Below are positions 4,352 through 52,456 of a DNA stretch of 64,000 nt, piece by piece. This DNA comes from Leptospiraceae bacterium UBA2033 (GTDB taxonomy: Bacteria > Spirochaetota > Leptospiria > Leptospirales > Leptospiraceae): the NCBI GenBank assembly GCA_002333425.1, contig DDBL01000133.1, forward strand, positions 5,740 to 69,739, given 5' to 3'. The notes beneath the pieces were generated by a model, which did no database searches, was not told where the DNA came from, and worked only from the letters and a program-made list of their open reading frames with translations. Each line of letters starts with the position of its first letter. Position 1 is the stretch's first letter. The translations under genes and the position numbers were made by a program.

Positions 4352-4900
4352 ATGCCTACCATCTTTTCTCATGGCATTGCTGCATTATCCGCAGCGAGTA
4401 TTTTTAAAACTAAATTTGATAAATCGAAGTTTTACTTACTTGTATTATTTTGTTCTTTGATTCCTGATGCTGATGTAATTGCTTTTCCGTTAGGTATTCC
4501 GTATGCACATTGGTTGGGGCATAGAGGGATTACCCACTCGATTTTATTTTCAGTTCTATTTCCTATACCAATTTTATTTATTTTTTATCGTTTTGTTCCA
4601 GTGTTTACACTTCGTTACCTGCTATTATGGTTTGTGTTTTTTTTATCTACGTTATCTCATGCGCTTTTGGATGCACTTACGAATGGAGGACTTGGAGTTT
4701 GTTTGTATTGTCCTTTTAATGTCGATCGATTTTTCTTTGACTTTAGACCAATTCAAGTTTCTCCTATTGGTAAACGATTTTTTTCAGAAGCAGGTCTTCG
4801 TGTTTTACAATCTGAATTTGTTTGGATTTGGATTCCTTCTATTATATTTTTTGGTGTATCAAATTTTCTCAAACTAATACTGGATCAAAGAAGAAAGTAA
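4352..4900 (+). CDS. Membrane-bound metal-dependent hydrolase, YdjM/YbcI (DUF457) family
   Basis: 182 aa and multi-TM. It has N-terminal FSHG, PDADV and GHRGITHS motifs typical of DUF457. It starts 1 nt after the upstream stop. Confidence 0.7.
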   Translation: MPTIFSHGIAALSAASIFKTKFDKSKFYLLVLFCSLIPDADVIAFPLGIPYAHWLGHRGITHSILFSVLFPIPILFIFYRFVPVFTLRYLLLWFVFFLSTLSHALLDALTNGGLGVCLYCPFNVDRFFFDFRPIQVSPIGKRFFSEAGLRVLQSEFVWIWIPSIIFFGVSNFLKLILDQRRK

Positions 4901-4928
4901 TCATATCATTTCTCAAAAAGAATTGCGT

Positions 4929-4949
4929 CTTACATCGAGTTCACGTTAA
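4929..4949. repeat. Solo terminal-repeat copy of the MITE-like element at 43715-43928
   Basis: CTTACATCGAGTTCACGTTAA is 21/21 identical to the reverse complement of 43715-43735. It lies between two convergent stop codons. Confidence 0.75.
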
Positions 4950-4974
4950 ATAAAGTTATAGATAAGTTGTAATT

Positions 4975-6252
4975 CTAGAACGAAGCCTGGAAACGAAAGT
5001 TAAATAATGAATTTGTTCCCATTTGAGGACCATTTAAGTGTTGGTAAATTGGTTTTCCAATTTCAAACCCAGCTTTCATTTTTTCAGAAAAAGAGGGAAA
5101 ATAGAAGTTAACCCCTCCTAATAAATCTATCCTTCTTCCTCCTTGTCGATTTGGATCATTTTGTGGATCCATCGTTGGGTCTAGGTTTGGATCGGCTCCT
5201 GATATATTGTCCCATTTAGAGGACGTTATGCGCAATGTAGGAGCAAGCCAATTAAGTAAAAGATAAGAAGTCCACAGTGAAAATTCATAACGATTTCCGA
5301 ATCGATACCCATTGTCATTTTTACCATTTCGAAGTGTAACTTGAACAAAACTACCTAGTGAAAATTTTTCTTTTTTGAATATATAGCTAATTGCTGGAAT
5401 TGTATTATAGGTTCCTGTTCCCATTTGCATATTGTAGGGTGATTTTACTTTTCCCATCAGAGGCATTGTATTTTTTTCATCAATAGATCCTGTTGGTATT
5501 GTAATTCCTAACTGAACATTGATAGTATGGGATTCTTTTTCTAATAATTTATGAGCGAGTGTGAGTCCTATATCTCCAATTCCTTGTGTTCTCATAAATG
5601 ATTTTTCTAAATTTCCTGAGATCATCTGCATACTATTATTCATATAAGGTAGCATAATCATGATTGCTGTTTTGTCTGATATATTTTTCATGAGGCTAAT
5701 CATTGTCATCTCCATCTTCATCGCTACAGGCATAGACATATACCGATAGGAATTTGGATTGAGAGAGGCTACGTAGTATGAAGGTAAAGGATCTGGTGTC
5801 GTTGAAGTATTGGTCGTTGTTCCTGAGTGATCATGAATAGCCCCTGTCCCTAACTGGCTGGATGGAATTGAGCCTATTGTAGGATTATATTCAATACCCG
5901 CTAGATATTTATTTGGATCTTCTACGTTATTTCCATTGTAAAGAGAACGCATATCCATTTGCATATACATATAATCTACCATCCAATCATTCGAATTGTG
6001 TATATGGGGAAGCATTAGCCCAGCCGGGGTCATCATTGGCTCCGAATGTATATGCGGATTACTTGGCGTAACTGCTTTCTCCTTTGTGGTTTTTGTTTCT
6101 TCTAATTGTTTGACCGTAGATTTTGATTCGTCTTGGTGTTGCGGATATTTGTGGTTATGCCCTTCATGGCTTTGTCCCAGTAAAGAAAAACACGAAAGTA
6201 TGAGAATGTAACCCAAGTATATTATGGTTCGATACATTTTTTTTTGTAACAT
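4975..6252 (-). CDS. Outer-membrane beta-barrel protein with His/Met-rich N-terminal region
   Basis: Has a signal peptide; start chosen at MLQKKMYRT (6252). The mature N-terminus is HEGHNHKYPQHQ...HIHSEPMMTPAGLMLPHIHN...MYMQMDM. The body alternates in beta-strand fashion and ends with C-terminal ...FRFQASF. Confidence 0.65.
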   Translation of the reverse strand: MLQKKMYRTIIYLGYILILSCFSLLGQSHEGHNHKYPQHQDESKSTVKQLEETKTTKEKAVTPSNPHIHSEPMMTPAGLMLPHIHNSNDWMVDYMYMQMDMRSLYNGNNVEDPNKYLAGIEYNPTIGSIPSSQLGTGAIHDHSGTTTNTSTTPDPLPSYYVASLNPNSYRYMSMPVAMKMEMTMISLMKNISDKTAIMIMLPYMNNSMQMISGNLEKSFMRTQGIGDIGLTLAHKLLEKESHTINVQLGITIPTGSIDEKNTMPLMGKVKSPYNMQMGTGTYNTIPAISYIFKKEKFSLGSFVQVTLRNGKNDNGYRFGNRYEFSLWTSYLLLNWLAPTLRITSSKWDNISGADPNLDPTMDPQNDPNRQGGRRIDLLGGVNFYFPSFSEKMKAGFEIGKPIYQHLNGPQMGTNSLFNFRFQASF

Positions 6253-6263
6253 AATTTTTTCCT

Positions 6264-6692
6264 TTATTGATTTGAACCACCGGCAATCCAACAATAGACT
6301 GCTTCATTGATTTGCCGATTGGAATTGCCTGCCATTGCGCCTGTTGTAATTGCAGTATACATTCTGCTAGAACAAGGATTTCCAGGATTTGTAAATGCCT
6401 TAGTTGAATTATAGTCTGTTATATCCAAACCAGATTGTTGTGTGGCTCTAGTATGACAGCCTGACGTTGCGCAACTAACGTTTGTTCCTGCGGCGGCTAA
6501 CTTACTAAAACTAGGAGAGGTTGTACAGTTAAAGCTAGAAGTGCAAGAAGAGGAAGGGATAGAGGAAGATGGTGTCGTTGCTTTTCCTGTATGGTTTAAA
6601 ACTGCTAATGCCAGAGCTTGTTTGTTTGTATTATCATTTGTTTCGTTGCAGTTTACGGCTAATGCAAGTAAAATGGGAATTAGTATTTTCAT
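6264..6692 (-). CDS. Lipoprotein with putative c-type-cytochrome-like (PSCyt-like) domain, CX4CH motif
   Basis: True start MKILIPILLALAVNC at 6692 with RBS GGAGA. It contains the motif SCATSGCH and a C-terminus INEAVYCWIAGG resembling planctomycete-type cytochrome domains. The ORF-track N-terminus (6693-6863) runs through a repeat element. Confidence 0.5.
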   Translation of the reverse strand: MKILIPILLALAVNCNETNDNTNKQALALAVLNHTGKATTPSSSIPSSSCTSSFNCTTSPSFSKLAAAGTNVSCATSGCHTRATQQSGLDITDYNSTKAFTNPGNPCSSRMYTAITTGAMAGNSNRQINEAVYCWIAGGSNQ

Positions 6693-6728
6693 GTCTATTT
6701 CTCCTGATGGACTAAATTTACATATATA

Positions 6729-6804
6729 TGCCACGGAGGCACTGAGTCGCAGAGGGTTGAAATATATATTTATCAAACTCTCCGTGCCTTTGTGCCTCTG
6801 TGGC
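6729..6804. repeat. Inverted pair of TTGCCAC + triple-octamer elements
   Basis: The left arm is TGCCACGGAGGCACTGAGTCGCAGAG (6729-6754). The right arm is CTCCGTGCCTTTGTGCCTCTGTGGCA (6779-6804, reverse orientation). The pair is intergenic inside the minus-strand operon. Confidence 0.8.
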
Positions 6805-6816
6805 AAAATTAATGGT

Positions 6817-8169
6817 TTAATGGGAATGATTGGATGCAGATCCCAGTGTATGAAAGAAAACATTACTAAAACTTCCTTTCAATTCTAGTCTTTGTGTTAC
6901 TGCATTTGTTTCAGAATCTACAGTATACAAAATTCCATCTCCAGCAGGAACGAATATATGCATCATGGAGTCATGATTTACAGATGCAAGATGTCTATGT
7001 CCTGTTTTTGCATCTCCTACTGTGACTTGAGCTAGGAGTGTAAGACTTGGAAGGTTAGACGAATCATAAACTAAAAGTACATTTTGTTTTAAATTGGTAA
7101 CTTGATTGCCTGAACCTGAAAGTGCTGATGCGACATACAAGCGTTTACCGTCAGAGCTAAACATCATATGATCGGGGCTAAGGTCTGTTACATCTATAGT
7201 TGAAAACACATGAGTAGATGCATTTAAAATAGTTACTTTTCCTACAACATGGTTTGTGTCACTTGTTGTGTCTTTTCCTGGAATTGCAATGTATTGTCCA
7301 TTGGGAGATGCTGTTGACGGACCAGATTTTCCAGTAGCAATAGTTTCCATTGTTAGACTTGATGGGTTAACAGCGATTACACTTCCGGCAGATTGTGCGG
7401 ATATATATACTTTGCCAGAGACTGAAGAGTAACTAAAACCATGTGGTCCCGCTCCTGTTCCTAAATTTAGTGTGCTAATTACAGTCAGATAATTACTGCT
7501 AGTTGGTTCATTGTCAATTATAGAAATCGAATTGTCTGTGATATTACTAACAAACGCTCTCTTAGGACTTGTTGTAAAAATTGCTTTGTGATGTCCCTTA
7601 CCAACACATAGATGTTTGATTAAGCTTGCAGTATCTGCATCTGCTGCTCCTTTTACTCCATCTTGAATGACCGTAACAGAGGATACTCCAAGTGTATTAC
7701 ACGCATAATTAACATTATCCACACCTGCATTTCCATCATTCATTGTCCAAATTTTCCCATCTGGATCTTGGTAGACATGGACTGGACGACTTCCTGTGTC
7801 AATGTACTTCGCAAGTTTTGCTCCTGATGTTGCAATATTGATGACTGCAACTTTGTTTGAGTTTGTTAGGTTGGCGAAAATATGATCGTTCGTTGTAGCC
7901 TTAGAATCTCCAGGGTTTGAGTCTAACACAACGTTGCTTATAAAAGTATTTGCACCGGAGTTATGGGCGATAACGCTTAGATAGGGCATCGTTGTGTCTA
8001 GATTCGGAACAAACAGGTAGGAAGAATTACTGATTGTTTTGGGAATTAAACCTGCCAGACCAAGGATTGTTTGGTTGTTATTATTTGTATTTTTTTTCTC
8101 AGATCCTGTAAAGGTAAGGCTACAGGATATACTTTGTAGAATGAGCAGTGCTATTAATATTGGTTTCAT
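6817..8169 (-). CDS. Beta-propeller (YVTN/lactonase-like repeat) lipoprotein
   Basis: Start MKPILIALLILQSISC at 8169 with RBS GAGGAG. Periodic ~40-aa repeats are rich in G/S/T/V (e.g. ...GKIWTMNDGN..., ...GKVYISAQSAG..., ...GKRLYVASALSG...). The C-terminus is SNHSH. Confidence 0.6.
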   Translation of the reverse strand: MKPILIALLILQSISCSLTFTGSEKKNTNNNNQTILGLAGLIPKTISNSSYLFVPNLDTTMPYLSVIAHNSGANTFISNVVLDSNPGDSKATTNDHIFANLTNSNKVAVINIATSGAKLAKYIDTGSRPVHVYQDPDGKIWTMNDGNAGVDNVNYACNTLGVSSVTVIQDGVKGAADADTASLIKHLCVGKGHHKAIFTTSPKRAFVSNITDNSISIIDNEPTSSNYLTVISTLNLGTGAGPHGFSYSSVSGKVYISAQSAGSVIAVNPSSLTMETIATGKSGPSTASPNGQYIAIPGKDTTSDTNHVVGKVTILNASTHVFSTIDVTDLSPDHMMFSSDGKRLYVASALSGSGNQVTNLKQNVLLVYDSSNLPSLTLLAQVTVGDAKTGHRHLASVNHDSMMHIFVPAGDGILYTVDSETNAVTQRLELKGSFSNVFFHTLGSASNHSH

Positions 8170-8210
8170 AAAAATCTCCTCAGATTTCAATGGCTAATTT
8201 TATTTAGCCG

Positions 8211-8252
8211 TATTTTGTGGCAAATTTGAATTTGCCTTGTAATCGGTGTTAT
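8211..8252 (-). promoter_or_regulatory. Conserved 42-nt promoter/operator block, copy A
   Basis: The minus-strand sequence is ATAACACCGA-TTACAA-GGCAAATTcaAATTTGCCa-CAAAAT-A. That gives a -35 at 8242-8237, a 19-nt spacer containing an 8-bp dyad, and a -10 at 8217-8212. It is 41/42 identical to 12949-12990, and similarity ends right after the -10. Confidence 0.55.
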
Positions 8253-8265
8253 TTTTTGATGTGAG

Positions 8266-8658
8266 CTAACTGAATCGAGGAGGTTTAATTAGTGTTAGCT
8301 GGTAACCTTTAAGATTTGAAATTAAATTTGAAATTGGAAAAATATGTTGGGTTAGTTGAATTGTAAAGTTTGAAAAATTGTAAGATGGCAGAGTGAAAGT
8401 TTGCTTTAACAAATTAGAGAGTTCGTTTGGATTTTTAGTTTTCTTACAAGAGCAGATATGAACTGCCTTGTTTATGTCATGACAATCTGATTTTGCATAA
8501 GACTTAAAATGGGCTTCTTTTTTTGAATTGTGGTTACAGATACATACTTGCCTAACTTTTCGCATAAAACAAAGTCCTGAATCATAAATCAAACTTTGTG
8601 ATAGAACGGCAGAAATAATAATACAAGTAAAAACTGATTTTTTAATCACTTTCTGCAT
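8266..8658 (-). CDS. Small membrane-anchored Cys/His-rich protein, paralog A (130 aa)
   Basis: Start taken at MQKVIKKS by alignment with paralog B. It has a hydrophobic N-terminus and motifs CICNH, DCHD and HICSC. It shares 97/130 identical residues with 13083-13475 (hand count). Confidence 0.7.
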   Translation of the reverse strand: MQKVIKKSVFTCIIISAVLSQSLIYDSGLCFMRKVRQVCICNHNSKKEAHFKSYAKSDCHDINKAVHICSCKKTKNPNELSNLLKQTFTLPSYNFSNFTIQLTQHIFPISNLISNLKGYQLTLIKPPRFS

Positions 8659-8805
8659 GATAGATATATTTTTTACTTTAGAGTTTGTCAAGTAAGATTC
8701 GGTTTCCTAAATATTTAATTTTTAAAAATTCGTCATAGCAAATATTTCTAAACTTGATTTAAGTCAAGGATAATAATTATTATTCTCATTTTGTATCCTA
8801 TAAAT

Positions 8806-9741
8806 TTACAAATTAAAAATAAACGCAATATTAATTGAAGATTCATAAGGACGAAAATCTCTGCCACGATACAACGGATTACGGTAAGAAACCGTAAGCA
8901 TATATTTTTCACTAAATCTATAATTTACACCAAGGGTAACTTCTCTAAAAATTAATGGAACTTTATCTCCGCTTGATCTTTCTTTTTGTATTCCATTAAA
9001 AGGAGTCCTATAAGTATAACCAGAAAAAATTGAAATATGATTATTGATTATATAGGAAATAAAACCTGCGGCGTTTGTCGTTTTTTTTAGCTGGATGTTG
9101 TCTATTTGGTTGTAGGTAAATTTTTGTTCTTGTCTTAGTATATATGGAACTTCGTCGTTTGTATTGTTCGTATCACCTGTATAGCGGCTAATAGGCATTT
9201 CACCTCCTATTCTACCTACTACAGAAATCCTTTTCCATAAATAGCCAAATGCTAAATTACCTTGCGCTGTATAATAATTACTTTCTATGAATTTTTGATT
9301 TACTCCACTTGTAGGAAATCCTATTCGCCCTTCTGCAAAGAAAAAATAGTTATTCTCTGCTTGTGTTTTATAAAAAGGAAACAACTTTGAGCCAATATAA
9401 GGTTTACCGTAACGTGCAAAATCAGAACGTTCCTTTTGGTCATAATAGATATAGCTAAAATTTGCGTTTACAGTAAATAAACCTTGCATAAAAATACTTT
9501 CACCGTAAATCGTTGTGTTGTTTATATTTCTATTTTCTTGTGATCCGCGATTGTAGTCATTACTTAAAATAAAATACGTTGGCGGAAATTTACCAGTATC
9601 CTCCCCCTGACCCAAAAAGCGAACATTGAACTGAGTTGTATCAAGTCCAGAACCTGTATGATGTGCATTAAGATAAATAGATGTTAAGAGATAATACAAA
9701 GTAGCCGCTAGAATCTTCTTTTTAAAATTCATTTTCTGCAT
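8806..9741 (-). CDS. Outer-membrane beta-barrel protein
   Basis: Has a signal peptide ending ...YLNA followed by HHTGSG. Strands alternate aromatic and polar residues. The C-terminal region LGVNYRFSEKY... resembles GGVNFYFPSFSEKM of the 4975-6252 barrel. Confidence 0.6.
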   Translation of the reverse strand: MQKMNFKKKILAATLYYLLTSIYLNAHHTGSGLDTTQFNVRFLGQGEDTGKFPPTYFILSNDYNRGSQENRNINNTTIYGESIFMQGLFTVNANFSYIYYDQKERSDFARYGKPYIGSKLFPFYKTQAENNYFFFAEGRIGFPTSGVNQKFIESNYYTAQGNLAFGYLWKRISVVGRIGGEMPISRYTGDTNNTNDEVPYILRQEQKFTYNQIDNIQLKKTTNAAGFISYIINNHISIFSGYTYRTPFNGIQKERSSGDKVPLIFREVTLGVNYRFSEKYMLTVSYRNPLYRGRDFRPYESSINIAFIFNL

Positions 9742-10643
9742 CCGTGTTCTTTTATTGTTGTGTTTAGATTCCAGTTCTTTAGTATTTCATTGTAAATACC
9801 TGAATTTTCTGAAGAACTAATGATTGGGTTACTTTCGGTTAAATCGGTTATTGCCCGTAAGATTTTTGTATTATCGATTATTGTATAACTATTCGTAGTA
9901 GTATCTTTCCATAATTCAGAATATTTTAGAGCCATTTTCAAGTTTAGATTTTGATTGAGTCCTAGATTGGTTGTACAAAGTCTTGTGAATGGTATATCTA
10001 TTTTCGAAAATTGAAGTGTAAAGTTTTTTGTTTTATTATCTCCACTTATTGTTCCAGAAAAATGAACTGAATTAAAATGAAATGTAACTTTTTGCAATAT
10101 TCCCTGTGGTAAATCCGAAAGAACAAAATTTTCTGATATATTATAATAACCAAACTCATCTGATCCATTAGCGTTTAGGAATGAAGACGTTGAATAGCCA
10201 TTAGCCGTCGTAAATACTTTAATTGTTGCTGACGCGGAGCTAGAAGATCCGCTATCAGCTTCATGTAGCATAACTTGGTTAGTCGCATCAGATGAATTAA
10301 TGCTGGAACTAGTTGTAGATATATATAATTCTACTTTATCAAAACTTATTTGAGAAGAATTATTTAATGTTACTGTATAGATATCCGAAGCCACTGCACT
10401 GTTTAACTGAAAAGATTTTAAACTCTCATCTCCTTGGTCATCATAGAATAAAATCTGTAAACTTGCATTTGTTTTTATAGATTCCCGAAGAAGTGAAAGT
10501 CTGTTTATAATTATTTTTTTCTCGGTAAGACTGTTTCCTTCAGAGCCAAATGTGCAGTAACTGCTACTTAGAAGCAATAGCAAAGAACAACTAATAGTTC
10601 TTTGCCATACTTTTATATGATATAAATTAAATTTTAGTTTCAT
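9729..10643 (-). CDS. Lipoprotein, unknown function (Ser-rich)
   Basis: Lipobox LLSSSYC. There is an ATGA overlap with the upstream MbnH-like gene and an overlap with the downstream barrel gene. Confidence 0.6.
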   Translation of the reverse strand: MKLKFNLYHIKVWQRTISCSLLLLLSSSYCTFGSEGNSLTEKKIIINRLSLLRESIKTNASLQILFYDDQGDESLKSFQLNSAVASDIYTVTLNNSSQISFDKVELYISTTSSSINSSDATNQVMLHEADSGSSSSASATIKVFTTANGYSTSSFLNANGSDEFGYYNISENFVLSDLPQGILQKVTFHFNSVHFSGTISGDNKTKNFTLQFSKIDIPFTRLCTTNLGLNQNLNLKMALKYSELWKDTTTNSYTIIDNTKILRAITDLTESNPIISSSENSGIYNEILKNWNLNTTIKEHGCRK

Positions 10644-11839
10644 TGAAATGGATTACTAAATTTAGGATTAGAAATAAACTCATCATCAGTCAGAGCTTTT
10701 AAAAAATTTATCAAATCTGTTCTTTCTTGTGGCGTTAAGGTAAAAGCACGTATTTGCGGATCTTTGTTCTTATGTGATAAGCCACCGGATGCATAATGAT
10801 CGATAACCTTTCCAAGTGCTTCGGTGGAACAATTTTCAATGTCACTAGGACTTGCAGTCGTACAAGTAAAGCTTCCATCGTGCATGTAAGGATATGTCAA
10901 TGCGATGTTTCTAAGGGATGGTGGTTTAAACTTTCCAATATCAGTCTGTAAAAGGGTAACTTCATAAAGTCCTTTTTTGTTGTCAGGTAAACTAGCATAA
11001 GTCGTATCTGAAATAATTCCGTTACTGGAATAAGAAACTTCCTCAAACACAGTTCCTGCATGAGTCATCGAATTAGTATAGTTGATTCCTCCATGACAAT
11101 GAAAACACTCAGCCGTTTCTCCATTAAAAACTGCAAGCCCTCGGATAGCAGATGAGGATAAGGCGGACTTATCTCCATAATTCAAGTATTTGTCTACTTT
11201 TGATTTGCCGCTAATTAAACTTCTTTGAAAACTAGATAGCGCAAAACGAACATTTTGCTCTGTTATATTTTCAATTCCACCTCCGAACGCACTTTGGAAT
11301 AATGTTCTATAGCGACTATCGGACTTTAGGCGATTTAGGTAATCATCATTACTAAGTCCAAGTTCAATTGGACTTGTTCCAAACATAGGACCACGTGCTT
11401 GAATTTCTAAAGAAGTCATTTTGTCATTTGACCAGGTTAAACGCGTATTATACGCAACGTTTGCAAGATTCTGAGAGTTTCTGGGATGAACTTCAGCGGT
11501 AGATCCAATACCAAATGGTTTTCTATCAGTAAATGCAAATTCCTGAAGATGACAACTGGAACAGGATTGAGTTTGATTTTGCGACAAGTTTTTATCATAG
11601 AATAAAAAACGTCCCAAAGTAACTTTTTCTTCAGACATTGGATTTTCTCTCGGAACACTTGGTATTGGAAAATCATTGGGCAAATTCCAATTATATCCAA
11701 TTTGAGATCGTCCAGAAAATTGAGCAATAAAGGCTGATTGAAGTAGTTGCGAATTATTCTTATTATCCTTATTCGCTTTGTCAAAACTTGTTCCACAATA
11801 GATTGTAGACAAGAGCAGTAGTATAATGAATGATTTCAT
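10640..11839 (-). CDS. Di-haem cytochrome c peroxidase/MauG family enzyme, MbnH-like
   Basis: Start MKSFIILLLLSTIYC at 11839 with RBS GGAGGAAG. Two CxxCH motifs (CSSCH, CFHCH) are present, plus FKPPSLRNIALTYPYMHDGSF, which is typical of the CCP/MauG family. Confidence 0.85.
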   Translation of the reverse strand: MKSFIILLLLSTIYCGTSFDKANKDNKNNSQLLQSAFIAQFSGRSQIGYNWNLPNDFPIPSVPRENPMSEEKVTLGRFLFYDKNLSQNQTQSCSSCHLQEFAFTDRKPFGIGSTAEVHPRNSQNLANVAYNTRLTWSNDKMTSLEIQARGPMFGTSPIELGLSNDDYLNRLKSDSRYRTLFQSAFGGGIENITEQNVRFALSSFQRSLISGKSKVDKYLNYGDKSALSSSAIRGLAVFNGETAECFHCHGGINYTNSMTHAGTVFEEVSYSSNGIISDTTYASLPDNKKGLYEVTLLQTDIGKFKPPSLRNIALTYPYMHDGSFTCTTASPSDIENCSTEALGKVIDHYASGGLSHKNKDPQIRAFTLTPQERTDLINFLKALTDDEFISNPKFSNPFQ

Positions 11840-11969
11840 TTTCTTCCTCCAGAGAAGTAGATGCAAAAAGAAAAGTAGGATTTGAAATTGTTTGGCTCAC
11901 CTTGTTATAAAATTTAACAAAGTGAGTCAAACAAGGAACACTACTTAAATCTGTTTTAGATGTATCGTA

Positions 11970-12905
11970 TTACCGAATACTGAATGCTGATTGCGTTGTT
12001 GTTGCCCCGGTTGAAGGCACGATACCGATGTTAGAGATTATCGGCTGACAAGCAGTAGTCGCATTCCCAGTCATACAAATATTAATTCCTGTGCTAGAGG
12101 CATCTGAGCCACTAAAAAGAGCATTCAAGTCAAGAGTGATTACATCCCTTGTTGCATTAAATCCAGTTGCTTTTGTTAAAGAAATTGTAGGACGATTTGG
12201 TAAACCACATTCATTTATTGGTCCGGTAGTATTGCCTGAACAAGAACCACTTCCGAGGTGAAATTGATTTTTACTTGTTGCAGTAAATTCTATTTTTGCA
12301 AATTTATAACCACTATTCCATGCCCAATACATAGCAATATTATTTAGTGGAGAAGTTGCAGTAGATGTTGATAAATGATTTAAGTAAAATGGAACTCCGA
12401 TTTTAAATTCTACACCCACATAGTTACCAACTGCAGAAGTTCCGATAATGGATTTGTTTGTTTCAGTAGTTCCCCCACTACAACCGTTAGTCGCATCTTC
12501 AAAGTCAAGAAGTGCTACGCCTGAGTAACTTCCAAACGAGTTGGAACCAGCGCCTAATTGCCATTTTCCGTCGGTAGTGATTAAAAAATCTGACTTTGTT
12601 CCATCAGTTGATATTAATTTTACATCATGAACATAGAATCGTAAATCATTTAGAGTTGCACCTGTTGTTCCTGCGATAGTTCCAGAAAGAGTTCCGGCAC
12701 AAGAAACGTTAGTGTTTCCAGACACAACATTAAAATTGATTGTAGATACAGAAGTTGGAGAAGACGAATTGATTTGATTGGACACAAGTGCGATAGCCGC
12801 CTGTTGAGTCGGGTTTTTGTCTGTGTCTTTTTTTCCTGTAATTGTATCACAGGAATTAATTAGTGTAGATAAAAATAGAATTGTTAAAATGATAAAATGT
12901 TTCAT
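11970..12905 (-). CDS. MbnP-like 'metallo-mystery pair' four-Cys/WxW lipoprotein
   Basis: Lipobox TLINSC and a WxW motif (YWAWNSGYKF). It has several conserved-looking Cys residues (VSCAG, NGCSGG, GSCSGN, NECG). It sits immediately upstream of the di-haem MbnH-like gene. Confidence 0.7.
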   Translation of the reverse strand: MKHFIILTILFLSTLINSCDTITGKKDTDKNPTQQAAIALVSNQINSSSPTSVSTINFNVVSGNTNVSCAGTLSGTIAGTTGATLNDLRFYVHDVKLISTDGTKSDFLITTDGKWQLGAGSNSFGSYSGVALLDFEDATNGCSGGTTETNKSIIGTSAVGNYVGVEFKIGVPFYLNHLSTSTATSPLNNIAMYWAWNSGYKFAKIEFTATSKNQFHLGSGSCSGNTTGPINECGLPNRPTISLTKATGFNATRDVITLDLNALFSGSDASSTGINICMTGNATTACQPIISNIGIVPSTGATTTQSAFSIR

Positions 12906-12948
12906 AAAATATCCTTGTAAAGTATGAGTAATACTGTTTACTCTATAT

Positions 12949-12990
12949 TATTTTGTGGCAAATATGAATTTGCCTTGTAATCGGTGTTAT
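12949..12990 (-). promoter_or_regulatory. Conserved 42-nt promoter/operator block, copy B
   Basis: 41/42 identical to 8211-8252. The -35 TTACAA is at 12980-12975, the dyad GGCAAAT/ATTTGCC lies in a 19-nt spacer, and the -10 CAAAAT is at 12955-12950. Confidence 0.55.
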
Positions 12991-13000
12991 CTTTCTATAC

Positions 13001-13079
13001 GAGCGCGGGCGGCGGTTTTACGATGTAGAGACAGGTTTGAAACCTGTCTCTACGACGATGATGTCGCCGCATCGCCCAG
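13001..13079 (-). repeat. GC-clamped extended hairpin element, copy 2
   Basis: Layout is GAGCGCGGGCGGCGG, then the hairpin GTAGAGACAGGTTtgaAACCTGTCTCTAC, then CGCCGCATCGCCC. It begins 4 nt after the stop of the minus-strand gene 13083-13475, in the same relative orientation as copies 1 and 3. Confidence 0.7.
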
Positions 13080-13082
13080 AAT

Positions 13083-13475
13083 TTAAGAAAACTTAGGAGG
13101 TTTAATGAGTGTTAGCTGATAGCCTTTATGGTTAGAAATAGAATTTGAAATTGGAAATATATAATGCGTTAGTTGAATGGAAAGAACAGAGAGCGTATTT
13201 GTTGTGATGAAAAAAGTTTGTTTGATTAGATTAGAGAGTTCGTTTGGATTTTTTGTTTTTTTACAAGAGCAAACGTGAACTGTTTTTTTTATATCATGGC
13301 AATCTGATTTTACAGAAGATCTGGAATGGATTTCTTTTTTTGAGTTGTGGTTACAGGTGCATATCTGCCTGACCTTACGCATAAAACAAAGTCCAGAATC
13401 ATAAATCAAACTTTGTGAAAGGACAGCAAAGATAATAATAAAACTCAAAATAGATTTTTGAATCACGCTTTGCAT
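13083..13475 (-). CDS. Small membrane-anchored Cys/His-rich protein, paralog B (130 aa)
   Basis: MQSVIQKS... with a hydrophobic N-terminus and motifs CTCNH, DCHD and HVCSC. The C-terminus GYQLTLIKPPKFS is conserved with paralog A. Confidence 0.75.
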   Translation of the reverse strand: MQSVIQKSILSFIIIFAVLSQSLIYDSGLCFMRKVRQICTCNHNSKKEIHSRSSVKSDCHDIKKTVHVCSCKKTKNPNELSNLIKQTFFITTNTLSVLSIQLTHYIFPISNSISNHKGYQLTLIKPPKFS

Positions 13476-13669
13476 GTTAACTACGGTCTAATTCTAAACA
13501 TTCTGCTTGTCAAGGAACATTTTACTGTAACCTCATCGCCCTGCGTGATATATATCATATTAGGTTCATGATCTAGATCAATGTGCAAATATTATGAGTA
13601 GGCAAAATCTATTTTTTTTACTGAAATGAATTGCAGGGAAACGATAAATTTGTACATTGCTAAATTAGT

Positions 13670-14275
13670 ATGAAACAAATATTGCTTGTTCCTAATCTTT
13701 TAACTTTGTCTCGGATGATTCTTATTTTTCCCTCGATCTATTTTTTAGAAAAGTCTGAGTTTTTAATTGCTGCTATTCTGGTGGCTATTTTACTTTTAAC
13801 AGATTTTTTCGATGGGTTTTTCGCTCGTAAGTTAAATCAAACTTCCTATTTGGGAGCAATCCTTGATCCAGTTGCAGATAAAATGGTTGTCATTCTTTTT
13901 TTTACTCATTTGATTTTGGTGAATTCTACTTCTCCGCTTTACTATGGCTTAGTTTTGACACGTGATATTTTACAGCTTTCTGTTATTCCGATTTTACTTC
14001 TTTGGAAAAAAATTGAGTTTAAAGTGAAACCAAGTCGGATTGCAAAACTAGGTACGGCTTTGAATTTTATTATTCTCGCTTTATATGAAATGAACTTTGT
14101 AGTTGCAAAAACTCCTGAGTGGTATGCGCGGTTTCTGGATGAATTGCAGACTTTGAATGTGTTTACTTTATTTCCTTTGCTTCTCATTTCCGCTTGTATT
14201 GAAGTTTACATCTTGTTTACCTTTATCCCTAGATTCATTCAGATTTATAAAGGGACTCATGATACATTTGAATAG
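13670..14275 (+). CDS. pgsA: CDP-alcohol phosphatidyltransferase (PgsA-like)
   Basis: Carries the signature DG-x2-AR-x8-G-x3-D-x3-D as DFFDGFFARKLNQTSYLGAILDPVADK. It is multi-TM. Confidence 0.8.
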   Translation: MKQILLVPNLLTLSRMILIFPSIYFLEKSEFLIAAILVAILLLTDFFDGFFARKLNQTSYLGAILDPVADKMVVILFFTHLILVNSTSPLYYGLVLTRDILQLSVIPILLLWKKIEFKVKPSRIAKLGTALNFIILALYEMNFVVAKTPEWYARFLDELQTLNVFTLFPLLLISACIEVYILFTFIPRFIQIYKGTHDTFE

Positions 14276-50797: not shown

Positions 50798-52456
50798 ATG
50801 AATAACTTTACAGAATCAATCTTAAAAGATTTGGAAAACAAAGAAAATGGATCTTTCCAAATTAAAAATGAAAATAACCATGCTGTATTATCCGTTTACA
50901 AAGCCGGCAAAAATGGAAAACCTGTAACTAGGCAAGATGTATTTCAGAGATTGAAACTGTTTAATATTGAAGGTTATGATAGAGCACAAGTCGAAGTTAT
51001 TGTTGCAAATGCAGACGGGAAAGACCATCCAATTGCAGCTTGGACAGGTGGAAATCCAGTTGATTCAAAGTTAGACATAGAAATTTCTCCTGATAAAATG
51101 GAGGCTTATATCATTATTTACCCCGCATTACATGGTGGAAATACTTTAAAAAAAGAAGATGTAATTCAGTCTTTAAAATCAAATGGAGTTTTTTTCGGAT
51201 TAAAAGAAGATGTAATTTCTCATTTACTGGACAATCAGAAATTTTTTATCAAAACGTTAGTTGCCCAAGGTATAAAACCAACCCCTACAATCAATGGTTA
51301 TATAAAAGTTTTATTTGAACCCCATAACAAACCAAATCTACATGAAGACGAAAAAGGTAGAGTAGACTTTAAAGATATTCAAGTTATTAAAAATACCAAA
51401 AAAGGCGAAATTTTAGCAGAAAAAATAGAACCAAAACTTGGAACTGCTGGCAAAAATGTTTTTAGTGAGGAAGTTCCTATCGACAAACCAATAGAAGGAA
51501 ATTGGAAAACAGGGGCTAATTGTGAGTTGTCGGAAGATTCTAAAAAGTTAAAAGCATCTATTGCCGGAAGACCCATTTTAGAAAGAGATGGAACAATTCG
51601 TGTGGATGAAGTTTGTTACTTAGAGAATGTAGATTATTCAACGGGTAATGTTGATTTTCCGGGAACGATTATTGTGGACGGAACTGTTGCGGATAACTTT
51701 ACTCTTCGCACAAAAGGTTCCCTTATCATTAAAAAAAGTGTAGGGCGAGTTTTTCTCTATGCGGATAGAGATATTGTTTTATCCGGTGGGGTGATGGGGC
51801 GAAATGGTGGAGTTATCGAATCTAAAGCAGATGTATATGCTCGTTTTGTAGAGCAGGGAAATATTAAGGCAGGAAAAAGTATTTTCATCGAAGAGGCATC
51901 CATGCATTCAGAGTTAGTTGCAGGGGATTCTATCACTATCAAAGGTGGAAGAGGAGAGCTTATCGGCGGAGAGGCAATTGCAGGAAAAATGATTTCTGTT
52001 AGTAAACTAGGCGCAGTTGTGGAAACTCGAACTGAGTTAATTGTTGGTTTGCCTCCAGAAATTTTAGAAGAGCTTCGCAAAATGAAAGAAGAAATTTTCT
52101 CTCAGGAAGAAATTTTAAAAAAAGTAAAACAGAGTATGTCAAAACTCATAGACCCGAAAAAAGAAAACACTCCTGATGAGAAACAAATGCTCATTAAACT
52201 CTACGAAGTCGAAAAAAAATATACCGACCTACTTGCAAATACTAAAACTCAATACGAAACGTTAGTTGTTAGTTATGAGCCCGCAGGATCTGCCTACGTG
52301 GAAGTGGAAAAAAGTCTTTTTCCAAAAGTAGCTATTAATTTAGGAAAAGGAAAAATTTATAATTCAGAGCTTAAAACTTATAACGGAAGATGTTTTATCT
52401 ACAATAACGAAGATGGAATTCCTACTAGAACTACGGTTCCACCTAAAAAAATATAA
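50798..52456 (+). CDS. FapA (DUF342) family protein
   Basis: A beta-helical repeat region GNVDFPGTIIVDGTVADNFTLRTKGSLII... is followed by a coiled-coil tail, as in FapA/DUF342. Confidence 0.65.
   Translation: MNNFTESILKDLENKENGSFQIKNENNHAVLSVYKAGKNGKPVTRQDVFQRLKLFNIEGYDRAQVEVIVANADGKDHPIAAWTGGNPVDSKLDIEISPDKMEAYIIIYPALHGGNTLKKEDVIQSLKSNGVFFGLKEDVISHLLDNQKFFIKTLVAQGIKPTPTINGYIKVLFEPHNKPNLHEDEKGRVDFKDIQVIKNTKKGEILAEKIEPKLGTAGKNVFSEEVPIDKPIEGNWKTGANCELSEDSKKLKASIAGRPILERDGTIRVDEVCYLENVDYSTGNVDFPGTIIVDGTVADNFTLRTKGSLIIKKSVGRVFLYADRDIVLSGGVMGRNGGVIESKADVYARFVEQGNIKAGKSIFIEEASMHSELVAGDSITIKGGRGELIGGEAIAGKMISVSKLGAVVETRTELIVGLPPEILEELRKMKEEIFSQEEILKKVKQSMSKLIDPKKENTPDEKQMLIKLYEVEKKYTDLLANTKTQYETLVVSYEPAGSAYVEVEKSLFPKVAINLGKGKIYNSELKTYNGRCFIYNNEDGIPTRTTVPPKKI

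Follow-up and report, generated by a model that had tools for sequence, protein, structure and literature searches.

The window analysed here is a stretch of 64,000 nucleotides (nt) from Leptospiraceae bacterium UBA2033 (GenBank assembly GCA_002333425.1, contig DDBL01000133.1, positions 5,740 to 69,739). It carries two paralogous genes, referred to below as copy 1 and copy 2, that each encode a protein of 130 amino acids (aa) and that each stand first in an operon. We propose, with a probability of roughly 0.6, that each gene codes for a metal-sensing leader peptide that acts in cis, is exported while it is being translated, and belongs to the type represented by CruR and CutF. A sensor that acts in cis as a nascent peptide is favoured over a folded protein because an invariant Pro-Pro pair is found near the stop codon, because a ruler of about 54 residues separates this pair from a Cys/His motif, because most of the protein is predicted to be coil, and because pairing is predicted between the Pro-Pro codons and the next gene's Shine-Dalgarno sequence.

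Two leader peptides serve as points of reference. CruR (Bp2923, DUF2946/PF11162) of Bordetella pertussis is encoded by a copper-responsive upstream open reading frame (ORF) with a RAPP arrest motif, and relief of the arrest by copper leads to Rho-dependent termination (PMC9426467, Roy et al. 2022). The translation arrest by CruR has been demonstrated in vitro (PMC12992588). CutF of Rhodobacter capsulatus, a protein of fewer than 150 aa, carries a signal peptide, contains four Cys in two pairs, and ends in PPPRL-stop; a ribosome stalled upon copper induction melts a stem that masks cutO's Shine-Dalgarno sequence (PMC9973294; bioRxiv 10.1101/2025.02.05.636593).

Two divergent members of the LIC_11090 family

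The first-pass annotation of the window had located both ORFs correctly and given their length as 130 aa; it did not give the strand, which is minus for both. It also described them as paralogues, and the two proteins are indeed identical at 97 of 130 positions (75%) in a gapless alignment (E=2e-71). The nucleotide sequences are 78% identical, with a synonymous divergence (dS) of 0.95, a nonsynonymous divergence (dN) of 0.149 and a dN/dS of 0.16. Because of this dS and this dN/dS, the two ORFs are best seen as translated genes that arose by an old duplication and have been kept by purifying selection, not as chance ORFs. We also considered that copy 1 is a recent duplicate. This was rejected because dS is 0.95 and because leaders with the full motif head operons of the same type as that of copy 1 (type B, see below) in other genomes. 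For copy 1 a TTG at 8691 is a possible start in the ORF list; alignment of homologues favours the ATG at 8658.

The family, which the first-pass annotation did not recognise, has been catalogued. In the precomputed annotation of Pfam all homologues are PF28271 ('LIC_11090'), to which both copies are assigned, copy 1 as 'weak'. Against the NCBIfam model NF047775 ('LIC_11090 family protein') copy 1 scores 54.4 bits (E 1e-14) and copy 2 scores 66.5 bits (E 2e-18), where the cut-off is 75. The model is matched by all 79 relatives that we collected, the window proteins included. With the family the two proteins share the motifs CxCNH..., HxCxCKK and a KPP tail, as well as a Leptospiraceae origin, and it is on scores below the NCBIfam cut-off that they differ from it. 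We therefore take them to be divergent members of the LIC_11090 family. A Pfam scan of the window proteins and their neighbours, using a release older than PF28271, gave no match for the two leaders. When the 79 relatives were searched against Pfam and NCBIfam at E<=10, the LIC_11090 family was the only match; there was no match to DUF2946 and none to HYC_CC_PP, a further candidate.

Membership explains nothing by itself, as the family is catalogued without a functional description. We found no functional or regulatory study of it in the literature on LIC11086-LIC11090, on Lsa30, or on Leptospira together with MbnP/MbnH. An exhaustive profile search of 1.8 billion representatives returned 67 proteins. 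Among GTDB species representatives there are 28 loci, nearly all from Leptospira species or Leptospiraceae metagenome-assembled genomes, and the sole locus outside the Leptospiraceae is on a contig of 3 kb that was binned as Candidatus Berkiella. The members with a species name belong to L. yasudae, L. sanjuanensis, L. inadai and L. broomii. The window itself is identical to contigs in metagenome assemblies, and the species representatives closest to it are uncultured Leptospiraceae with no more than 71% identity. Judged by these searches, the family is confined to Leptospiraceae.

A Cys/His motif at a fixed distance from a Pro-Pro tail

The N-termini of both proteins are hydrophobic, as had been noted before. 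They reach a Kyte-Doolittle peak of 2.9-3.3 within residues 4-25, with a basic n-region and a hydrophobic core of 12-15 residues followed by the small-residue sequence SQS, and AlphaFold places a helix over residues 2-36 (predicted local distance difference test, pLDDT, 85-97). From this, residues 1-22 of copy 1 are predicted to be an export signal or an N-in/C-out anchor, with cleavage, anchoring and a lipobox as alternatives. Members from the genus Leptospira have a GSGLLGxC stretch past the hydrophobic core, and UniProt labels some family members 'Lipoprotein'. The candidacy of C30 as the lipoprotein Cys is doubtful: Asp occupies position -4, and distant members do not conserve the Cys.

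The first-pass annotation listed C30, C39-x-C41-x-H43, H50, C59-H60 and H67-x-C69-x-C71 as a conserved pattern of mirrored triads. The positions are right, and most of the pattern holds in relatives. In an alignment of 79 family sequences, the most distant at about 16% identity, C39, C41, C69, P126 and P127 are invariant and H43, H50, C59, H67 and C71 are at least 90% conserved. This conservation makes the mirrored CxCxH ... HxCxC arrangement a real hallmark of the family. C30 is lost in distant members, and H60 falls below 90% in the 79 sequences, but is conserved at 90% or more in an alignment of 25.

The C-terminal segment, which had also been described as conserved, is the best conserved part of the family. 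The Pro-Pro pair is invariant and lies a median of 3 residues (range 1-9) ahead of the stop codon, at residues 126-127 in the window copies, and conservation extends over about 10 residues upstream of it as L-x-G-[YF]-x-L-x-L-I-[KR]-P-P-[RK]. Among ORFs of 60-190 aa in the window, a Pro-Pro pair within the last 14 residues occurs in three: the two leaders and an ORF at 51757-52080 without His. In 76 relatives, 52-56 residues separate the last Cys of the second CxC from this Pro-Pro, with exactly 54 in 42 of these and a standard deviation (sd) of 0.75. Two other measures vary far more in the same relatives: the two Cys motifs are 29 to 76 residues apart (sd 11.9), and the proteins are 118 to 178 aa long. 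The linker of about 40 residues between the second CxC and the tail is poorly conserved, with less than 1.5 bits at nearly every position.

Some of these features would also suit a stable periplasmic metal-binding accessory protein, whether anchored, secreted or lipidated. In such a protein the triads would bind Cu(I) or Zn, and its task would be to deliver metal to MbnP and the type B transport system or to buffer it for them. We consider this unlikely, though it deserves to be weighed and could coexist with a leader role. The strongly conserved, Cys/His-rich motif agrees with it, as do the segments conserved in close relatives, the purifying selection over the whole ORF (dN/dS 0.16), and the 'Lipoprotein' labels with the GSGLLGxC stretch in genus Leptospira. 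The structure predictions bear on it in both directions. AlphaFold2 was run with the 25-sequence and the 79-sequence alignment, and the predicted TM-score (pTM) was 0.31 to 0.38 over both runs; in the first model the two CxC strands are paired. With the 79-sequence alignment the N-terminal helix was predicted with confidence and the remainder as mostly coil (pTM 0.38). Modelling had been proposed as a check in the first-pass annotation; it bears out the N-terminal helix, and it predicts no compact folded domain past this helix. Foldseek of the model against the PDB gave no match, and neither did a search of PDB sequences with the family profile at E<=10. An accessory protein thus has no predicted compact fold and no relative in the PDB by structure or sequence. 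It also offers no reason for an invariant Pro-Pro near the stop codon at a distance that is fixed in length and variable in sequence.

Predicted RNA pairing and conserved spacer elements

Spacers between the leader gene and the next gene are 50-290 nt long in the family. The Pro-Pro pair is encoded in both window copies by CCUCCU, which resembles an anti-Shine-Dalgarno sequence. We assessed pairing by ranking of duplexes and by base-pair probabilities (P) with control zones; a narrower first count is superseded by these results. Computed with generous flanks, the GAGGAG of the gene behind copy 1 is predicted to pair with the segment from the Pro-Pro codons to the stop codon (P 0.49-0.57), and the duplex, at -15.0 kcal/mol, is the best of 28 blocks. 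The same computation predicts, for copy 2, that AAGGA pairs with UCCU within the Pro-Pro codons (P 0.61-0.90). At 31 non-redundant loci, pairing with P>0.3 was obtained in 12, versus 2 and 0 in the two control zones (Wilcoxon p=0.011, 0.043), and in 10 of the 31 the 3' end of the ORF is the best complement of the Shine-Dalgarno zone. The predicted pairing between Pro-Pro codons and Shine-Dalgarno sequence is thus recurrent, not universal. A stable accessory protein gives no reason for it.

Two further elements were found in the spacers. The first, of 42 nt (AUAACACCGAUUACAAGGCAAAUUCAAAUUUGCCACAAAAUA behind copy 1), differs between the copies at a single position, whereas synonymous sites in the ORFs in front of it are nearly saturated. 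In six loci its hairpin is maintained, with one compensatory pair. Because the element is nearly identical behind ORFs with a dS of about 0.95, the comparison indicates that it is a selected cis-element; a Rho-loading, processing or binding site is possible. The second is a long GC-rich hairpin in this AT-rich genome, found behind copy 2 (GGGCGAUGCGGCG ... CGCCGCCCGCGCUC), with a perfect inner stem of 13 bp and a z-score of -8.4. Because no U-tract follows, it is not a canonical terminator. Related elements lie at the same place in two other loci, L008 (8407-) and L014 (7381-). In related loci the 5' flank GGGCGAT[A/G]CGGC occurs only directly behind leader stop codons, and aligned spacers vary inside. 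We also considered a dispersed repeat, which is unsupported, as the hairpin has one copy in the window and is found elsewhere only directly behind leader stops.

A search of window positions 4500-14000 against Rfam gave chance matches to microRNAs only, and the 42-nt element had no match. A scan for promoters and terminators gave sites no more frequent than in shuffled sequence. From its sequence, the TTGACA box ahead of each leader gene may be a promoter. In the clade of the window, this box (cTTGACAa) stands 27-37 nt before the start codon and there is no clear Shine-Dalgarno sequence. The 5' leader of these genes may be very short or absent. In genus Leptospira loci (L003, L006, L019-L034 and others), the region 20-70 nt upstream of the leader start has a conserved GGACA-N7-TGTCC dyad followed by AAAAATTGTCTCGATTTTT. 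This dyad suggests an additional transcriptional operator.

Operon context

The family member comes first in its operon at every locus examined. Two operon types were found. Type A has the order leader, MbnP, MbnH, Lsa30-like protein and LIC11086-family outer-membrane protein, and is kept down to 28% leader identity. Type B has the order leader, 450-aa beta-propeller protein, small lipoprotein and Phenol_MetA_deg-like outer-membrane barrel, and is represented by window copy 1 and by loci L014 and L016. The first-pass annotation had the leaders heading two metal-type operons, which agrees with the MbnP and MbnH genes of type A and with the His/Met-rich N-terminal region of the type B barrel. 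The features of the window are collected in Table 1.

Table 1. Features of the two leader operons in the window (positions numbered along the forward strand of the window).
Feature	Positions	Strand	Basis or remark
Leader ORF copy 1, 130 aa, LIC_11090 family, gene 1 of type B operon	8266..8658	minus	ORF; PF28271 (weak); NF047775 54.4 bits
Copy 1 residues 1-22: basic n-region (K3, K6, K7), hydrophobic core, SQS	8593..8658	minus	hydropathy; AlphaFold helix
Copy 1 residues 39-71: CxCNHxSxxExH ... CH ... HxCxC, mirrored triads, presumed metal-sensing	8446..8544	minus	alignment
Copy 1 residues 116-130 and stop: arrest-like tail L-x-G-Y-x-L-x-L-I-K-P-P-R-F-S	8266..8313	minus	alignment
Copy 1 Pro-Pro codons CCUCCU	8283-8278	minus	
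TTGACA box, 27 nt upstream of copy 1 ATG	8686..8691	minus	common to window clade
Spacer from copy 1 to propeller gene, 96 nt; Shine-Dalgarno GAGGAG at 8181-8176	8170..8265	minus	
Conserved spacer element behind copy 1, 42 nt; hairpin at 8236-8219	8211..8252	minus	
Leader ORF copy 2, 130 aa, LIC_11090 family, gene 1 of type A operon	13083..13475	minus	ORF; NF047775 66.5 bits
Copy 2 residues 39-71: mirrored Cys/His triads as in copy 1	13263..13361	minus	alignment
Copy 2 residues 116-130 and stop: arrest-like tail as in copy 1	13083..13130	minus	alignment
Copy 2 Pro-Pro codons CCUCCU	13100-13095	minus	
TTGACA box upstream of copy 2	13508-13513	minus	common to window clade
Spacer from copy 2 to mbnP, 177 nt; Shine-Dalgarno AAGGA at 12916-12912	12906..13082	minus	
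Conserved spacer element behind copy 2	12949..12990	minus	
GC-rich long hairpin, from 6 nt past copy 2 stop; single copy in window	13000..13077	minus	
MbnP-family copper-binding protein	11970..12905	minus	TIGR04052 223.9 bits
MbnH-family di-haem enzyme	10640..11866	minus	TIGR04039 430 bits
Lsa30-like protein, under family cut-off	9729..10643	minus	family hidden Markov model (HMM)
LIC11086-family outer-membrane transporter-like protein, under family cut-off	8806..9741	minus	family HMM
450-aa beta-propeller protein, His-rich C-terminus ending HTLGSASNHSH; ATG 8169	6817..8169	minus	
LIC11213-like lipoprotein ORF	6264..6863	minus	
Outer-membrane barrel, Phenol_MetA_deg-like, His/Met-rich N-terminal region	4975..6294	minus	

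The operons bear on the accessory-protein reading as well. Strict co-occurrence with MbnP/MbnH agrees with it, but the same type of protein also heads an operon without MbnP/MbnH (type B). In another Leptospiraceae genome the propeller operon is headed by a degenerate paralogue (L011 12692-13084, equal to P0077; also in L013 and L017). This protein has lost all His and C59 and has kept CLC, CSCKK, ILKPPRLL and a spacing of 52 residues. Retention of a His-less paralogue at the operon head speaks against an accessory protein. The persistence there of CxC, CxCKK, KPP and the 52-residue spacing is consistent with the leader reading. Together, the evidence speaks against an accessory protein as the sole function.

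Two other functions were weighed against the same context. One is a thiol-disulfide redox or maturation factor with catalytic CxC pairs, acting for example to hold the cysteines of MbnP or MbnH, or haem-attachment sites, in the reduced state, or to help form the kynurenine cofactor. Manesis and co-workers reportedly described, in 2021, the role of MbnH in modifying MbnP. The two CxC pairs lie in the predicted periplasmic segment, and the gene lies near that of the di-haem enzyme that modifies MbnP. However, neither a thioredoxin-like nor any other fold was found, no known redox family was matched, type B operons have no MbnH, and the ruler and Pro-Pro tail would go unexplained, all of which makes such a factor improbable. 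The other is the precursor of a modified metal-binding peptide, a methanobactin-like chalkophore processed by enzymes of the neighbourhood. MbnP and MbnH are known from methanobactin operons (PMC3621798), and the leader is a small, Cys-rich peptide. However, neither MbnB/MbnC nor other peptide-modifying enzymes were found in the loci examined, a length of 118-178 aa with an N-terminal export helix is unlike MbnA-type precursors, and conservation runs over two motifs and a tail with no leader/core layout. We regard a chalkophore precursor as very improbable.

Some observations concern the neighbouring genes themselves. Lsa30 (LIC11087) has been published as a laminin/fibronectin-binding adhesin. 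The fixed place of the Lsa30-like gene, third in the MbnPH operon, suggests that its primary role may lie in metal acquisition, since this operon is a copper-uptake cassette. As listed, the lipoprotein ORF at 6264-6863 overlaps the propeller gene by 47 nt, and an internal Met (MKILIPILLALAVNC, lipobox-like) is the probable start of the LIC11213-like lipoprotein. The N-terminal region of the barrel (HEGHNHKYPQHQ..., PHIHSEPMM..., MYMQMDM) recalls copper-binding outer-membrane proteins. In L008, directly past the MbnPH cassette, a 155-aa ORF at 12815-13282 has a hydrophobic N-terminal segment, ends in SSRGPPLFIS-stop, has no Pfam match, and lies upstream of two cytochrome c proteins and a SCO1/SenC copper chaperone. 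With its RGPP arrest-type motif this ORF may encode a second kind of leader peptide nearby. On several RefSeq plasmids (NZ_CP049906.1, NZ_CP088082.1, NZ_CP047243.1 and others) the MbnH homologue is named 'methanobactin export MATE transporter MbnM'. This label on a di-haem MbnH homologue looks like a propagated misannotation.

Proposed mechanism

If the leader reading is correct, the N-terminal signal or anchor would bring the nascent chain to the Sec translocon, and the ribosome would pause on the invariant [K/R]-P-P-[R/K], three codons ahead of the stop. During this pause the HxCxC triad, about 54 residues upstream, would just be reaching the periplasmic side, with the CxCxH triad already outside. 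A distance of about 54 residues to the peptidyl-transferase centre would correspond approximately to the combined length of exit tunnel and translocon. Metal clasping the mirrored triads, or disulfides forming instead, would change the pulling force on the chain and with it the length of the pause. The metal is probably copper because MbnP and MbnH are encoded downstream. There is a precedent for metal-dependent force, in that zinc-dependent folding of a zinc finger releases the arrest of SecM.

How the pause would act on the operon can be imagined in two ways. As with CutF, a ribosome on the Pro-Pro codons could prevent them from forming base pairs with the next gene's Shine-Dalgarno sequence. 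Alternatively or additionally, a parked ribosome could shield the transcript from termination in the structured spacer, as with CruR. Either way, the metal status of the periplasm would govern how the operon is expressed. For an operon that serves uptake, as MbnPH does, the logic of CruR is the more plausible, such that metal would shorten the pause and turn the operon off. The full version of this proposal is that LIC_11090 proteins are independently evolved transmembrane co-translational metal sensors, in which metal would clasp the two mirrored triads where they leave the translocon, exactly 54 residues from the peptidyl-transferase centre, and would so set the dwell time on [K/R]PP codons that mask the next ribosome-binding site. 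To this we give slightly less than an even chance.

Of the roles that had been suggested in the first-pass annotation from operon position (sensor, chaperone or maturation factor), a sensor fits best, in the form of a nascent-peptide leader that had not been considered there. A compact redox centre, or a role as chaperone or maturation factor, is unsupported by the evidence but conceivable.

Several points weigh against the leader reading. What we observe is the two genes and the family to which they belong, its motif and ruler, the place at the head of the operon and the predicted RNA pairing, whereas export (from hydropathy only), pausing, metal binding, and both the sign and the level of regulation are steps that we infer. 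Pairing with the Shine-Dalgarno sequence is predicted at only about 40% of loci, and the copy 2 duplex does not stand out by itself (-4.6 kcal/mol, rank 17 of 31). The tail [K/R]PP differs from RAPP/RGPP or PPP, for which arrest has been demonstrated. Neither the window proteins nor the 79 relatives matched PF11162 at E<=10 in hmmscan, with a library in which a genuine DUF2946 protein scored 24.8 bits. An alignment by hhalign to 15 DUF2946 sequences gave a probability of 0.3%, and the likeness between LIC_11090 and DUF2946 is one of architecture only. In the deeper AlphaFold model, the C-terminal third attains a pLDDT of 70-80. With five Cys and four His the proteins exceed the needs of a CXXC sensor, and close relatives conserve the segments QSLIYDSG and KNPNELSNLIKQ; a function of the mature protein could explain both.

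Implications

What is new here is the proposed mechanism, as a variant of CruR/CutF; what was already known is the family, by name only. If the proposal is correct, a function and a mechanism would be assigned to an uncharacterised family that is present across Leptospira, and the proteobacterial strategy of sensing copper with a leader peptide would have a spirochaete counterpart built from unrelated sequence. The differences in metal clasp, arrest motif and ruler length would then help to define the essentials of the mechanism. Copper acquisition by MbnPH would be controlled in this way throughout Leptospira, including at the LIC11086-LIC11090 locus of pathogens. So far this locus has been studied for the adhesin Lsa30 and for a vaccine-candidate outer-membrane protein. 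In L. interrogans it would be recast as a metal-regulated copper-uptake operon, and differences in its expression between culture and host could be explained by copper availability.

Comparison with CruR, CutF and other arrest peptides

The proteins of the LIC_11090 family are best read as a variant of the regulatory kind represented by CruR and CutF, either unrelated to these in sequence or related beyond detection. The likeness to CruR is extensive in architecture. Both are small proteins with an N-terminal export signal (predicted in LIC_11090) encoded by gene 1 of putative copper operons. Both have a Cys motif at a fixed distance from a Pro-Pro pair that lies 3 residues ahead of the stop, and a long structured spacer before the next gene. 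DUF2946 genes stand first in copper operons, a number of which include MbnPH-like genes, and are followed by long spacers (PMC9426467); the LIC_11090 loci likewise have the leader as gene 1 of a putative copper operon and a long spacer behind it. In DUF2946/CruR the spacing is constant within 1-2 residues, as compared with 52-56 residues (sd 0.75, n=76) in LIC_11090. An Ideonella plasmid has a DUF2946 gene (CPLC...RGPP-ALA-stop, with a spacing of 45 residues), behind which come a spacer of 197 nt and the genes for MbnP, MbnH and an outer-membrane receptor. This gene occupies the same place before MbnP-MbnH as LIC_11090 does in Leptospiraceae.

The two also differ. The metal motif is CXXC in CruR, whereas LIC_11090 has the mirrored CxCxH / HxCxC together with H50 and C59, and no CXXC. 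The tail is R-A/G-P-P in CruR and [LIF]-[KR]-P-P, at a like position, in LIC_11090. The ruler is 45 residues in CruR and 54 in LIC_11090, and the hosts are Proteobacteria in the one case and Leptospiraceae in the other. CruR acts through Rho-dependent termination; by contrast, the predicted pairing of codons with the Shine-Dalgarno sequence suggests translational control in LIC_11090.

With CutF, the LIC_11090 proteins share a length below 150 aa, two Cys pairs able to form disulfides or bind metal, and a Pro-rich motif with a basic residue near the stop (PPPRL-stop in CutF, KPPRFS-stop here). A signal peptide and a downstream stem masking the next Shine-Dalgarno sequence, both present in CutF, are putative in LIC_11090, the stem being predicted for both window copies and for 12 of 31 loci. 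Under the rules that define CutF-like proteins, the window copies have 130 aa, Pro-Pro at 126-127, spacers of 96 and 177 nt and a Cys/His motif. Read from sequence, LIC_11090 thus falls within this rule-based definition, with signal-peptide cleavage presumed. It differs in having PP where CutF has PPP, and its likeness comes from the rules, not from a sequence search starting from CutF. CutF-like members have been called 'scarce' in Spirochaetota (PMC9973294, Ozturk et al. 2023), and these may or may not belong to the LIC_11090 family. A detoxifying oxidase lies downstream of CutF, whereas the uptake-type MbnPH lies downstream of LIC_11090. Because of this difference in the downstream genes, the sign of regulation is probably opposite to that of CutF.

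As a further comparison, in arrest peptides of the SecM/ApdA type and in the synthetic FXXYXIWPPP, too, the arrest segment is C-terminal, about 10 residues long, and ends in Pro. The likeness to FXXYXIWPPP is a loose one of position, with Pro-Pro preceded by an aromatic residue at -7 and by Ile at -2; it concerns two positions only and serves as a lead. In the SecM/ApdA type, release occurs by pulling force during export, as we propose for LIC_11090. The difference is that peptides of this type sense the secretion machinery, whereas LIC_11090 leaders would sense metal.

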